Below are positions 15,613 to 18,091 of a DNA stretch of 64,000 nucleotides, in pieces. This DNA is from Escherichia phage EcNP1. Each line of letters begins with the position of its first letter. Position 1 is the stretch's first letter. The notes beneath the pieces are model-generated. The model was not told the origin of the DNA. It did no database searches and saw only the letters and a program-made list of their open reading frames with translations. The stretch lies in the sequence record NC_054910.1. One strand, 5' to 3'. The translations under genes were made by a program, and so were the position numbers.

Positions 15613-15643
15613 ACTAAAAAGCCCCAACCTTTCGGTCGGGGCT
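15613..15643 (-). terminator. rho-independent terminator (copy 1 of duplicated element)
   Basis: minus RNA GCCCCGACC-GAAA-GGUUGGGGC then UUUUU; 33-nt block identical to 16169..16199. Confidence 0.7.
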
Positions 15644-15650
15644 AAGAATG

Positions 15651-16094
15651 TTATTTGATTTGTTTAGCAGACCAAATGCGGTCTTTAATAATTTTTTGGA
15701 TGTCTTCAACATACTCTAGGTCATGAGCATGTGGGTTGTCTTTGAAACTATAAGCACGGGCTAACTTTTGGCCTTCGGTTTTGATTACTAAAAGCTCTTT
15801 AAGGATAGCTTCATATTTAGCGATAATTCCTTTAACAATATTTTTTTCTTGTGCAGCTTTAGGATCTGCTTTAGGAGCAGGTTTACCGGAAGGTTTTTCG
15901 AAAGCCGCACCAGTAGCAACCAGGCTTTTCCAGGCGGTGGTAACATAGTTACCCACAAAGCCTTCAGCTCTCATATCGTCGTAGAACTTGTACCTGGATT
16001 CGTCAGAAGCATCTTTATAAGAATATTTACCAGCTTTAATAGCAGCAGTTGCTACAGCGCGAACATCTGAAGCGGATGCTTCATTTAACACCAC
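15651..16094 (-). CDS. internal-protein-like protein, N-terminal capsid-targeting motif in a different frame
   Basis: track ORF starts at GTG; 29 nt upstream an SD+ATG opens MKSYAQF then stops; one extra T in the TTTT run would give MKSYAQFLNEVVLNEAS... Confidence 0.5.
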   Translation of the reverse strand: MVLNEASASDVRAVATAAIKAGKYSYKDASDESRYKFYDDMRAEGFVGNYVTTAWKSLVATGAAFEKPSGKPAPKADPKAAQEKNIVKGIIAKYEAILKELLVIKTEGQKLARAYSFKDNPHAHDLEYVEDIQKIIKDRIWSAKQIK

Positions 16095-16161
16095 TTCATT
16101 TAAAATTGAGCATATGATTTCATCTTATTTCCTGTTTTAATTCGTGATTTAATACACTACT

Positions 16162-16169
16162 ATATTTAT
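16162..16169 (-). promoter_or_regulatory. T4-type late promoter TATAAATA
   Basis: TATAAATA on minus strand about 38 nt upstream of the ATG at 16123, abutting the upstream terminator. Confidence 0.5.
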
Positions 16170-16199
16170 ACTAAAAAGCCCCAACCTTTCGGTCGGGGC
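16169..16199 (-). terminator. rho-independent terminator (copy 2 of duplicated element)
   Basis: identical hairpin plus U-run to 15613..15643. Confidence 0.7.
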
Positions 16200-16200
16200 T

Positions 16201-16511
16201 AAGCCTTGCGGCAACCTTGTCGGGGTTCCACCTGCTAAGGCAAGTGTTTGTACGAAACGCCGGGATTTGAACCCGGTTATTAAGCAGTTGACGCTACTCA
16301 ATATTTTTAAAAGGCCATATCTCGACCATATCCGAACGTTCCGTCAAAAACGCTACTCGGCTTACGGCAAAGATATTTCCTCGAATCGATAATTCGGTGC
16401 GCCGTTTCTGCTGTGATGTAAGAGGGCATCAACAAATCATAAAGATTTATTAACGCAATTCCTTACCCAGGGAACATCAGTCCGACGACTTACCGGTAGC
16501 GACCCGGTTTC
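16201..16511 (-). ncRNA. putative small stable RNA region downstream of tRNA cluster
   Basis: about 310 nt without credible ORF between the 16512 stop and the terminator; contains a tRNA T-arm-like CCGGG-UUCAAAU-CCCGG; position matches T4 species 1/2 RNAs. Confidence 0.35.
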
Positions 16512-16862
16512 TTAATATTCTTTTAAAGCATCAATTTGTTCACGGCGTTTACGCCATAAATCAATTGCTTCATACGCAGATTCAGCATTTCGAATTGGAC
16601 GGCATTTATATAAAGACTTGTGATTTTGATATTGTGTAGATAACGGAATTTTATCTAAAAGGTCTTTACGTTCAAAATATTCGTAACCATCTAAACCAAA
16701 TGAACGATTTTTGAGAAATTGCCAATGACCATATTCGTTTTCGACATAAACATAATCTGCATGCTGATAAAGTAAATTAATTACACGTTCAGAAATAACA
16801 GTGTCATTATGATTAAAATAGAATGTTAAATCATGAACTACTAAATAAACATTACCTTTCAT
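16512..16862 (-). CDS. hypothetical protein embedded in tRNA region
   Basis: 116-aa ORF; GAGGAAA SD directly after tRNA-Arg. Confidence 0.55.
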   Translation of the reverse strand: MKGNVYLVVHDLTFYFNHNDTVISERVINLLYQHADYVYVENEYGHWQFLKNRSFGLDGYEYFERKDLLDKIPLSTQYQNHKSLYKCRPIRNAESAYEAIDLWRKRREQIDALKEY

Positions 16863-16876
16863 ATTTTCCTCACTTA

Positions 16877-16952
16877 ATTGGTCGAGGCAGTAGGGATCGA
16901 ACCTACGACCTAGGACTTAGAAGGTCCTTGCTCTTCCTTCTGAGCTATGCCT
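16877..16952 (-). tRNA. tRNA-Arg (anticodon UCU)
   Basis: hand-folded 76-nt cloverleaf, loop CUUCUAA, T-loop UUCGAUC, encoded CCA. Confidence 0.85.
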
Positions 16953-16956
16953 CGGA

Positions 16957-17031
16957 TTTGGCGGACGTGATAGGATTCGAACCTATAACCAATCGCTTAA
17001 CAGGCGATCGCTCTGCCATTGAGCTACACAT
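16957..17031 (-). tRNA. tRNA-Asn (anticodon GUU)
   Basis: hand-folded 75-nt cloverleaf, loop CUGUUAA, T-loop UUCGAAU, encoded CCA. Confidence 0.8.
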
Positions 17032-17035
17032 CCAA

Positions 17036-17122
17036 ATTGGTGGGGAGTGATGGAGTCGAACCACCCGAGTCGCAATGACAATGGATTTACAGTCCACACC
17101 GCTACCTCTACGGAATAACTCC
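17036..17122 (-). tRNA. tRNA-Tyr (anticodon GUA)
   Basis: 87 nt, class II with long variable arm, loop CUGUAAA, acceptor GGGGAGU/ACUCCCC, encoded CCA. Confidence 0.8.
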
Positions 17123-17131
17123 CCAAATTAA

Positions 17132-17206
17132 TTTGGTGGCCCTGGGTGGAATTGAACCACCATCTGGCGATTATGAGTCGCTTGCTTGAACCTTCCAGCT
17201 ACAGGG
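17132..17206 (-). tRNA. tRNA with anticodon CAU (Ile2 or Met)
   Basis: 75 nt, loop CUCAUAA, T-arm GGUGG-UUCAAUU-CCACC, encoded CCA; T4 carries a CAU Ile tRNA here. Confidence 0.8.
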
Positions 17207-17207
17207 C

Positions 17208-17283
17208 CTTGGTGCTGATTGACGGAATCGAACCGCCGACCTTCTCATTACAAGTGAGTTGCTCTACCTACTGAGCTAAATCA
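17208..17283 (-). tRNA. tRNA-Thr (anticodon UGU)
   Basis: 76 nt, loop CUUGUAA, encoded CCA. Confidence 0.85.
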
Positions 17284-17288
17284 GCAAA

Positions 17289-17378
17289 ACTGGCGGAGGC
17301 GATAGGATTCGAACCTATGAGTCGCCGGAGCGACTGCCGGTTTTCAAGACCGGTGCATTAAACCACTCTGCCACGCCT
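17289..17378 (-). tRNA. tRNA-Ser (anticodon UGA)
   Basis: 90 nt, class II long variable arm, loop CUUGAAA, encoded CCA. Confidence 0.85.
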
Positions 17379-17380
17379 CC

Positions 17381-17454
17381 AGTCTCCATACAAGGATTTG
17401 AACCTTGGACCTCCTGATCCCAAATCAGGCGCTCTACCAAACTGAGCTACACGG
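17381..17454 (-). tRNA. tRNA-Pro (anticodon UGG)
   Basis: 74 nt, loop UUUGGGA, T-arm CAAGG-UUCAAAU-CCUUG, CCA not encoded. Confidence 0.8.
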
Positions 17455-17464
17455 AGTAAATTAA

Positions 17465-17540
<76 letters not shown>

Positions 17541-17543
17541 AAA

Positions 17544-17630
17544 TTTGGTGCGAGAAGTGGGACTCGAACCCACAAGGAAATCATTCCGCAGCATTTTAAG
17601 TGCTGTGCCTTTACCAATTTGACCATTCTC
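17544..17630 (-). tRNA. tRNA-Leu (anticodon UAA)
   Basis: 87 nt, class II long variable arm, loop CUUAAAA, encoded CCA. Confidence 0.85.
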
Positions 17631-17631
17631 G

Positions 17632-17704
17632 CGCTGGGAATAAAGGACTCGAACCTTTGCATCCTGGAATCAAAATCCAGTGCCTTACCAACTTGGCTAA
17701 TTCC
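17632..17704 (-). tRNA. tRNA-Gln (anticodon UUG)
   Basis: 73 nt, begins UGGGAAUUAGCCAAGUUGGUAAGGCA as in T4 tRNA-Gln, CCA not encoded. Confidence 0.85.
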
Positions 17705-17803
17705 CAATTATTAACAAAGGCTCTCAAACAAGAACCCTTGATGATAGAGGGTATTAATCAGTGCGGTATGAGTTAATAATAACAAATAATTCTTAAAGCA
17801 TAT

Positions 17804-18091
17804 TTACCATTTATGATAATACATATTTACGATGCAGTCAAGACCTAAAGGATTCTTGAAAATATCATATTCAAGAGGACCTTTTTCCGTTTCAATAAAG
17901 AAATCAAAGTTAACTGTGTTAAATTTACGGTCTTCCTTCACTAATTTAACTTGAGAAGATGAACGGTCAATGTAAACCTTTTCAACTTCAAAATATGTTA
18001 AAATGCCGTAATCATCAATCAAGGCTTTAGCTGCTTCTTGATCATATTTATATCCATTTTCAATGGATGATACTTTCGCATAAAGAATCAC
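17804..18091 (-). CDS. hypothetical protein
   Basis: 95-aa ORF between tRNA cluster and ipI. Confidence 0.5.
   Translation of the reverse strand: MILYAKVSSIENGYKYDQEAAKALIDDYGILTYFEVEKVYIDRSSSQVKLVKEDRKFNTVNFDFFIETEKGPLEYDIFKNPLGLDCIVNMYYHKW

Follow-up and report, generated by a model that had tools for sequence, protein, structure and literature searches.

Probable orthologues of the T4 stable RNAs rnaD and rnaC downstream of the tRNA array of Escherichia phage EcNP1 and their comparative structures

Two small stable RNAs, species 2 (rnaD) and species 1 (rnaC), have been known from phage T4 since the 1970s. Other stable non-coding RNAs, namely the tRNA-like domain of transfer-messenger RNA (tmRNA) and the bacterial Y-like RNAs (YrlA), retain an acceptor and/or T-arm module like that of tRNAs but are without an anticodon. 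In the T4 reference genome (NC_000866), rnaD (species 2 RNA, 119 nucleotides (nt); T4s002) and rnaC (species 1 RNA, 139 nt; T4s001) are annotated as misc_RNA features directly downstream of tRNA-Arg. Here, we analyse the interval 16201..16511 of a 64,000 nt stretch of DNA from Escherichia phage EcNP1 (NC_054910.1), the whole of which is referred to below as the window. We assign a probability of about 0.9 to the reading that this interval holds this Tequatrovirus's orthologues of T4 rnaD and rnaC, followed by a conserved trailer and the operon's intrinsic terminator. The rnaC and rnaD genes are not new but already known and annotated in T4; what the comparison adds is covariation-backed structures for both RNAs, a co-evolving kissing loop, and ACA/CCA variation in the tail of rnaC.

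Comparison with T4 rnaD and rnaC

An earlier note on this DNA had placed about 310 nt between the tRNA cluster and a strong terminator and had taken them for 'a tRNA-like or T4 species 1/2-type stable RNA'. The placement was correct, as ten tRNA genes (17706..16879) lie on one side and the terminator (16200..16172) on the other, and the assignment agrees with an alignment in which the window is collinear, end to end, with T4 rnaD and rnaC. Going beyond that note, there are two RNAs, a separately conserved trailer of 50 nt follows them, and the minus strand is the one concerned throughout. It carries all of the features, in the order ten tRNAs, an open reading frame (ORF) of 116 amino acids (aa), rnaD, a 6 nt spacer, rnaC, the 50 nt trailer and the terminator, and the coordinates given below refer to this strand unless otherwise stated.

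The rnaD orthologue, of approximately 119 nt, lies at 16396..16514 and the rnaC orthologue, a tRNA-like four-helix RNA of 139 nt, at 16251..16389, the two being separated by the spacer GAAUUA (16390..16395), for which T4 has AAAUUA. Each was located both by alignment to its T4 counterpart and with a covariance model. The two rnaC sequences are identical at 136 of 139 positions and the two rnaD sequences in 112 of 121 aligned columns. Model R1 matched rnaC with 160.1 bits (E about 1e-38), its sole match in the window, and model R2, built from 18 homologues, matched rnaD with 139.9 bits.

T4 rnaC has the same length, the same fold and the same place, after rnaD and before the terminator, and can be regarded as functionally the same gene. 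Only three substitutions separate it from rnaC of the window and all are compatible with the structure described below: a C for U opposite a G in arm P2, a G for A in arm P3 that changes A-U to G.U, and an A for G in the T loop. T4 rnaD and its counterpart in the window have the 5' hairpin, helices P1 and P2, the CCC bulge and GGCGCACC as their 3' end in common, and differ at the tip of the variable hairpin and in the base past the annotated 3' end, which is G in the window and A in T4 (...CACC-A). The surroundings of the 5' end also differ: T4 rnaD begins 1 nt past the CCA of tRNA-Arg, whereas in the window the 116 aa ORF lies in between. The homology with T4 breaks off exactly at the 5' end of rnaD, i.e. 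at the stop codon of this ORF, the TAA of which makes up the first 3 nt of rnaD. The limits 16201..16511 given in the earlier note hold for the region as such, but the part encoding RNA begins approximately 3 nt earlier, at 16514, and overlaps this stop codon. A position directly after tRNA-Arg, which was not found in the window, is a trait of T4 and not of the family, because the upstream neighbour of rnaD varies among phages (two tRNA-Arg types, a mini-rnaD, ORFs).

Neither RNA has a family in Rfam 15, which at the gathering threshold detected nothing in the window apart from the ten tRNAs, and at E ≤10 nothing above chance level was found in 16050..16950 beyond tRNA-Arg. Within 16201..16511, ARAGORN reported no tRNA or tmRNA, and Rfam no tRNA, tmRNA or other family, E ≤10 included. 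The covariance-model search of Rfam that the earlier note had proposed gave no family for either RNA; our own models R1 and R2 match them. When folding was compared with that of shuffled sequence, z was −6.5 for a 351 nt stretch, −4.2 for rnaC alone and −2.8 for rnaD alone. In T4 infection, both RNAs have been detected by RNA-seq and classed as late RNAs, and Northern blot validation with an RNAC probe has been described (PMC9697503).

Folds of the two RNAs

Initially, 20 distinct homologues of rnaC were compared, and 25 after a covariance-model search for distant copies, drawn from about eight Tevenvirinae lineages; the rnaC model itself was built from the 20-sequence alignment. Covariation shows that the consensus is a four-way junction in which two arms stand in for the D and anticodon arms of a tRNA. 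Among the 20 sequences, 98.7 % of the pair cells are standard and 24 pairs carry a compensatory change, values that were reached in none of 500 shuffles, and pairing falls to 36–47 % when the 3' partners are slid by 1–3 columns. With all 25 sequences, compensatory change is seen in 33 of the 48 pairs, though alignments A7 and A8 were fitted to the secondary structures of the models and the pair counts are somewhat inflated. Comparative folding, which the earlier note had also proposed, thus reveals structure that is conserved across related phages, with compensatory changes in both RNAs.

The acceptor-like stem of rnaC is formed by CGAUUCG at nt 2–8 (16382..16388) and CGUUUCG at nt 131–137 (16253..16259), the latter lying directly 3' of the T stem as in a tRNA. 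It comprises seven stacked positions, including two U.U mismatches, and pair 3 is A-U in eight and G-C in 17 of the sequences. In Jiaodavirus, the U.U positions are replaced by U-A and A-U and pair 6 by U-A, giving seven Watson–Crick pairs, and hence the U.U positions lie inside a helix. The long arm P2 (nt 9–78; 16312..16381) is an irregular hairpin of about 26 base pairs (bp), with compensatory change in 18 of the 20 pairs of its four helical segments, and in the Kanagawa-type and KaAlpha homologues its sequence differs while the helix is retained. It is followed by a single-stranded, A/U-rich junction linker, UUUAAAAA (nt 79–86; 16304..16311), which takes part in no pairing in the minimum-energy fold or in the consensus fold and has a conserved A-rich core. 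Arm P3 (nt 87–112; 16278..16303), a 10 bp stem adjoining the T arm, shows compensatory change in every one of its ten pairs among the 25 homologues. After a single A comes the T arm (nt 114–130; 16260..16276), and its sequence, CCGGG-UUCAAAU-CCCGG, is the canonical T-arm that had been recognized in the earlier note. The middle pair of the T stem is U-A in 11 sequences, G-C in 10, A-U in two and C-G in two, and the loop is the canonical UUCRAAU in most lineages.

A 9-mer, GAGUAGCGU, is present twice in rnaC, at 16349–16357 (nt 33–41) and 16291–16299 (nt 91–99), in each case in the 5' strand leading into one of the two hexaloops considered below. This repeat suggests that distal P2 and P3 may have arisen through an internal duplication.

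The 3' tail of rnaC, U-ACA-A (16248..16252), occupies the position of the discriminator and CCA of a tRNA, and the T4 annotation ends rnaC at ...GUA, equivalent to 16251. The discriminator position is U in every homologue. The tail reads GUACAA in 21 homologues, including those of the window and T4, and GUCCAA in four of the 25, which are from Jiaodavirus and from the Klebsiella phages kv_tblp5 and Clarke_MM3. Hence, some lineages appear to encode a true tRNA-type U-CCA end, of which the U-ACA of the T4 type would be a one-base variant.

When compared with the canonical tRNA (RF00005), rnaC shares the seven-position acceptor stem continuous with a 5 bp T stem, the UUCRAAU T loop, the single discriminator-like U, the CCA-like tail and the location of its gene within tRNA arrays. 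In most other lineages it lies 5–6 nt past the CCA of the preceding tRNA, after an A/U-rich spacer, and in Tequatrovirus 6 nt past the 3' end of rnaD. It has, however, neither a D arm nor an anticodon arm with a 7 nt loop, and instead carries an arm of approximately 70 nt and a 10 bp arm, both hexalooped and kissing; it also differs in the ACA tail (in this lineage), in the two U.U mismatches of the acceptor stem, and in not being detected by ARAGORN or the tRNA covariance model. That no full cloverleaf could be folded, as the earlier note had remarked, is consistent with this structure, in which just one half of a tRNA, that of the acceptor and T arm, has been retained. The likeness to tmRNA and YrlA is architectural only, as a tag ORF, a ring of pseudoknots and a long stem for Ro binding are all missing from rnaC; ARAGORN and Rfam gave no tmRNA match, and Rfam no match to a Y-RNA family, for rnaC.

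The apical hexaloop of P2, UUGACG (nt 43–48; 16342..16347), and the hexaloop of P3, CGUCAA (nt 97–102; 16288..16293), are exact reverse complements, which for two given hexamers is expected by chance once in 4,096. They are complementary in 25 of 25 rnaC homologues via three distinct combinations, UUGACG/CGUCAA in 21 sequences (from Tequatrovirus and the majority of the other lineages), UUGGCG/CGCCAA in two (kv_tblp5 and Clarke_MM3) and UUGCAG/CUGCAA in two (Jiaodavirus). The kissing helix is 100 % paired over the 25 sequences, and both sides have changed in two of its six pairs. Because the rnaC covariance model does not contain this helix, the alignment is not biased toward it, and its counts are free of the model-fitting bias that affects the other helices. 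The covariation thus indicates that the two hexaloops form a 6 bp loop-loop contact. We found no description of such a contact in rnaC in the literature searched, a search that did not extend to the original sequence papers of the 1970s. Kissing complexes are known from HIV-1 DIS, ColE1 RNA I/II and the P2–P3 loops of the lysine riboswitch. As in those complexes, two hairpin loops make a 6 bp Watson–Crick helix, here backed by covariation; in rnaC, however, the loops sit on neighbouring arms of a tRNA-like four-way junction.

Most simply, the two hexaloops kiss within one molecule, and the contact holds the two arms that have no counterpart in tRNA together in a compact body. However, the P2 loop of one rnaC molecule might pair with the P3 loop of another, giving dimers or chains. 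The covariation shows that the hexaloops pair, not that they pair in cis, and it is compatible with an intermolecular contact as well. In addition, P2 is approximately 16 bp longer than P3 (about 26 versus 10 bp), and a contact in cis would demand that P2 bend back sharply. On the other hand, cis contacts are favoured entropically, and several conserved bulges and internal loops in P2 could supply the bend. We retain the intramolecular kissing loop as the preferred arrangement and regard dimers or chains as unlikely.

For rnaD, 18 T4-type sequences were compared and then 28 distinct sequences, including those of the Karamvirus type and that of phage W70. Covariation shows that rnaD consists of a 5' hairpin and then a three-tier stem with an invariant closing helix, a CCC bulge and a freely varying tip. 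Over the 28 sequences, 95 % of the cells are paired and 14 of 25 pairs carry a compensatory change, while slid controls give 32–45 %, figures that are somewhat generous since the alignment was fitted to the model. The 5' hairpin, ACCGG-GUCGCUA-CCGGU (16492..16508), has a 5 bp stem and a 7 nt loop, with compensatory changes in four of its five pairs and 99 % of cells paired in the 28 homologues; a terminator scan reported it on the opposite strand as well. The body (16397..16489) is made up of P1, P2, the CCC bulge and P3 with the tip hairpin. In P1, the closing stem, GUCGUCG (16489..16483) pairs with CGGCG-C-AC (16404..16397), and its core (C-G, G-C, U.G, C-G) is invariant in 28 of 28 sequences. 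P2 pairs UGUU (16476..16473) with AGCA (16412..16409) and shows compensatory change in three of four pairs, U-A becoming A-U in four sequences, G-C becoming A-U in six and U.G becoming A-U in six. Past the CCC bulge, P3 and the tip hairpin occupy about 16469..16416; compensatory change is found in six of the nine pairs of P3, and the tip varies in both sequence and length.

Three further features of rnaD were considered, and none was upheld. Its 3' end, ...GGCGCACC(A), looks like that of a tRNA, but the idea that rnaD is tRNA-like, having an acceptor stem that ends in N-CCA, was rejected because the RNA has no 5' strand complementary to this end and the supported P1 leaves a 1 nt overhang. A kink-turn in the GACUGA/GAAA internal loop is not supported, as this loop is not conserved in the Karamvirus-type homologues. 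Pairing of the loop of the 5' hairpin with UAGCG repeats in rnaC was put down to chance, since the complementarity extends over no more than 5 nt and neither W70 nor Karamvirus conserves the loop. A mini-rnaD paralogue of approximately 68 nt was also seen between a T4-type tRNA-Arg and rnaD in Dhakavirus IME540 (L025:1132-1199) and likewise in MX01, L013 and L160. It carries a 5' hairpin, then AAGCCGUCG...GACUGAU...CCGGCGCACCA, and is without the variable tip hairpin.

Distribution, trailer and gene order

The 351 nt stretch was found in 807 phage records, 678 of which cover at least 80 % of its length, whereas neither 5,426 complete E. coli genomes nor the plasmids of PLSDB yielded a homologue. 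A small number of records (T4, RB3, RB9, RB59, Kha5h and T2L) annotate rnaC or rnaD; most records of T4-like phages leave the interval blank or set 'hypothetical protein' ORFs there, and one labels rnaC 'tRNA-OTHER'. Outside Tequatrovirus, rnaC lies between tRNA-Trp and tRNA-Gly in Karamvirus, between tRNA-Phe and tRNA-Trp in Winklervirus, and directly after tRNA-Pro in Jiaodavirus (138 Klebsiella-phage records), and homologues are present in Kanagawavirus and Moonvirus. In two Klebsiella phages of unclassified genus it follows tRNA-Met, directly in kv_tblp5 and about 70 nt downstream in Clarke_MM3. The rnaD gene is found between tRNA-Asn and tRNA-Asp in Karamvirus and Jiaodavirus, and in Dhakavirus, which is without rnaC. 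A scan of metagenomes with a sequence pattern returned 120 loci, but the pattern was too permissive and almost all were chance matches; searches with the models upheld only L061 and L149, both ordinary Tequatrovirus copies.

A copy of rnaD is also found immediately after tRNA-Met in phages W70 and A73, which belong to the Vequintavirinae. The W70 homologue (L029:1493-1592; identical in A73) scores 94 bits with R2, begins 4 nt past tRNA-Met, and combines T4-type flanks with a Karamvirus-type tip hairpin and compensatory changes in the 5' hairpin. This copy implies a probable horizontal transfer of the rnaD gene alone into a phage subfamily unrelated to that of T4.

The tRNA arrays of Karamvirus and Jiaodavirus include further unannotated gaps of 100–130 nt besides those that contain rnaC and rnaD. 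In Klebsiella phage KaAlpha (L030) they are at about 1590-1715, 1794-1919 and 2081-2185, with equivalents in L031–L033, and one such gap, which follows the rnaD-like element, opens with a CCGAAAG-UUUA-CUUUCGG hairpin. Further stable RNAs may be encoded in these gaps.

The 50 nt trailer (16201..16250) contains a 7 bp hairpin, CACUUGC-CUUA-GCAGGUG (16246..16229), and the motif GGAACCCCGACAAGGUU. Its sequence, CACUUGCC..GCAGGUGGAACCCCGACAAGGU, is nearly invariant across Tequatrovirus, Dhakavirus and Gaprivervirus; its helices are also invariant, and covariation speaks neither for nor against them. The trailer is an independent conserved element, with no role assigned, because it lies directly 3' of rnaD in Dhakavirus, which lacks rnaC, and is present without either RNA in Gaprivervirus VR26 (L028:1501-1564). 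It is followed by the intrinsic terminator identified by the terminator scan, AGCCCCGACC-GAAA-GGUUGGGGCU and UUUUU (16172..16200), in which the hairpin (16200..16177) has a 10 bp stem with seven G-C pairs and a GAAA loop and precedes the U run.

A 28 nt terminator sequence, AAAAAGCCCCAACCTTTCGGTCGGGGCT on the plus strand, is found in two identical copies, at 15616-15643 and 16173-16200. The copies flank a 147 aa ORF on the minus strand (15651..16094; phrog_2280, function unknown), and a T4 late-promoter motif, TATAAATA, lies at 16170..16163, just past the first terminator copy. The region of the 147 aa ORF has the look of a gene cassette with a repeated regulatory stem-loop at either end. An apparent 558 bp insertion in Escherichia phage vB_EcoM_Nami relative to the window is not an insertion but results from BLAST having linked the alignment to the other, identical copy of the terminator 557 nt downstream.

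Over 761 bases, the surroundings of the interval share 99.8 % identity with vB_EcoM_Nami and match 761 phage records, in which T4-like phages of Escherichia and Shigella predominate, and on these grounds the window is a piece of a T4-like (Tequatrovirus) genome. The array at 16879..17706, identified by both ARAGORN and Rfam, reads from 17706 to 16879 Gln, Leu, Gly, Pro, Ser, Thr, Met/Ile-CAT, Tyr, Asn and Arg. The 116 aa ORF (16512..16862; ORF116) separates the interval from tRNA-Arg, as previously noted, and is without counterpart in T4. Its ATG is 16 nt past tRNA-Arg and is preceded by the Shine–Dalgarno sequence GAGG; the product matches phrog_3355 (function unknown; E = 1e-54), and no Pfam domain was matched.

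Within the array, tRNA-Tyr(GTA) (17038-17124) is unusually divergent, with a long variable arm, and reaches only 29.7 bits with the tRNA model of Rfam, the threshold of which is 29, compared with 59–74 bits for its nine neighbours. The tRNA-Arg(TCT) of the window (16879-16954) differs in sequence from the tRNA-Arg(TCT) of T4 (L001:3174-3248), and the type found in the window also adjoins rnaD in Dhakavirus IME281 and in several metagenomic contigs. Relative to T4, the segB homing-endonuclease gene is absent and tRNA-Tyr and tRNA-Asn genes are additionally present. The type of tRNA-Arg, the missing segB and the extra tRNA genes together make the gene content surrounding rnaC and rnaD mosaic.

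Alternatively, the interval could be only a cis-acting module of the tRNA/ORF116 operon, concerned with its 3' untranslated region, processing or termination, that stabilizes the transcript or directs its cleavage, the RNAs being by-products. It does end in the operon terminator, the trailer is conserved independently of both RNAs, and rnaC bears processing signals of the tRNA type. However, both RNAs are found in the middle of arrays in other genera, far from a terminator or ORF, and a copy of rnaD has moved alone into a Vequintavirinae phage. Moreover, neither the kissing loop nor the long P2 is needed for processing, and both RNAs are detected as transcripts in T4 infection (PMC9697503). 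We consider an exclusively cis-acting role very unlikely.

Still less credible is descent into decay, in which case the interval would contain the remains of tRNA genes, or neutral spacer in which a T arm happens to survive, and would be without function of its own. Though no cloverleaf and no Rfam family was found, and though phage tRNA arrays gain and lose genes and the neighbours of both RNAs differ among phages, compensatory changes maintain 33 of 48 pairs in rnaC and 14 of 25 in rnaD, the two rnaC hexaloops co-evolve, rnaC has been kept in about eight lineages despite the shuffling of the flanking genes, and both RNAs are seen by RNA-seq and Northern blot in T4 infection (PMC9697503). That the interval encodes small proteins, as annotated in many GenBank records, can be set aside with similar assurance because, as the earlier note had concluded, it has no convincing ORF: the only ones are mechanical ORFs of 41–50 aa on both strands, no frame is open across all homologues, the open frame shifts between lineages and T4, CW742 and L016 have none open across the element, the homologues differ by indels of 1–2 nt, and substitutions track RNA pairing, not codon positions.

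Processing and possible function

The two RNAs would form the distal end of the tRNA-cluster transcript, presumably co-transcribed with the array, since a sigma-70-like site lies ahead of the array at 17841..17813 and the terminator scan found no minus-strand terminator-like site between the array and 16200. Both would then be excised by the host tRNA-processing machinery. A 12 bp acceptor/T minihelix is what RNase P and the 3'-trimming enzymes recognize and, with a 5–6 nt A/U leader, is a standard RNase P substrate. As rnaC has the seven-pair acceptor-like stem on a T arm and such a leader, RNase P would be expected to cut at its 5' end, and this cut would leave rnaD with a short 3' tail that could then be trimmed to P1. 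At the 5' end of rnaD, an RNase E-type activity may be responsible, excising the RNA from the 3' end of the ORF116 message, because this end is an A/U-rich single strand just before a hairpin and is here located at the ORF116 stop codon. Such a scheme agrees with classical T4 work, which is said to have described a dimeric species 2–species 1 precursor and the involvement of RNase P.

The function of both RNAs was given as unknown in reviews and primary papers of 2010, 2022 and 2025 (PMC3014915, PMC9697503, PMC12685909). In an evolution experiment reported in 2025, one convergent single nucleotide polymorphism in rnaD arose in every line when a T4-like phage was adapted to the host ECOR34 (PMC12685909), which hints at a host-dependent role for rnaD. 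For rnaC, we suggest with low confidence that it could mimic a tRNA without an anticodon and engage a factor, of either host or phage, reading the acceptor and T-arm half of tRNAs, the conceivable targets being processing or 3'-end enzymes or a tRNA-targeting defence. A more elaborate form of this proposal is speculative, and we think it improbable as a whole. According to it, rnaC would be a dedicated anticodon-less mimic maintained within tRNA arrays in eight or more lineages of Tevenvirinae, locked by the kissing loop and with its tail switched between U-CCA and U-ACA, that occupies a factor reading the acceptor/T-arm half, and rnaD would be a second such effector. The factor might be a defence nuclease directed at tRNAs, a toxin acting on tRNA 3' ends by modification, or a processing enzyme.

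Several points weigh against the reading developed here. The U-ACA tail argues against aminoacylation of the window rnaC and leaves the idea of a decoy as a hypothesis. The ends of both RNAs in the window are provisional, having been transferred from the T4 annotation. The fitting of the alignments to the models bears on the pair counts, as noted above, and the length of P2 and the compatibility of a dimer with the covariation bear on the kissing loop. The part proposed for RNase P, RNase E and 3' exonucleases in processing is deduced from the anatomy of the locus and the classical T4 literature. Finally, T4 mutants from which the entire tRNA region has been deleted are said to be viable on laboratory hosts, and any function would therefore be conditional.

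More than 50 years after the discovery of the species 1 and species 2 RNAs, comparative structure supplies experimental handles on their function. In rnaC these are the half that resembles a tRNA, the kissing loop with its covariation and the alternation of ACA and CCA in the tail, and in rnaD the P1 core, which does not vary, and the spread of this RNA to an unrelated subfamily. The two covariance-supported alignments could, in addition, fill a gap in Rfam and in genome annotation. If rnaC and rnaD do act as mimics, the role of species 1 and species 2 RNAs in T4, a question of 50 years' standing, would become directly testable with loop and tail mutants.

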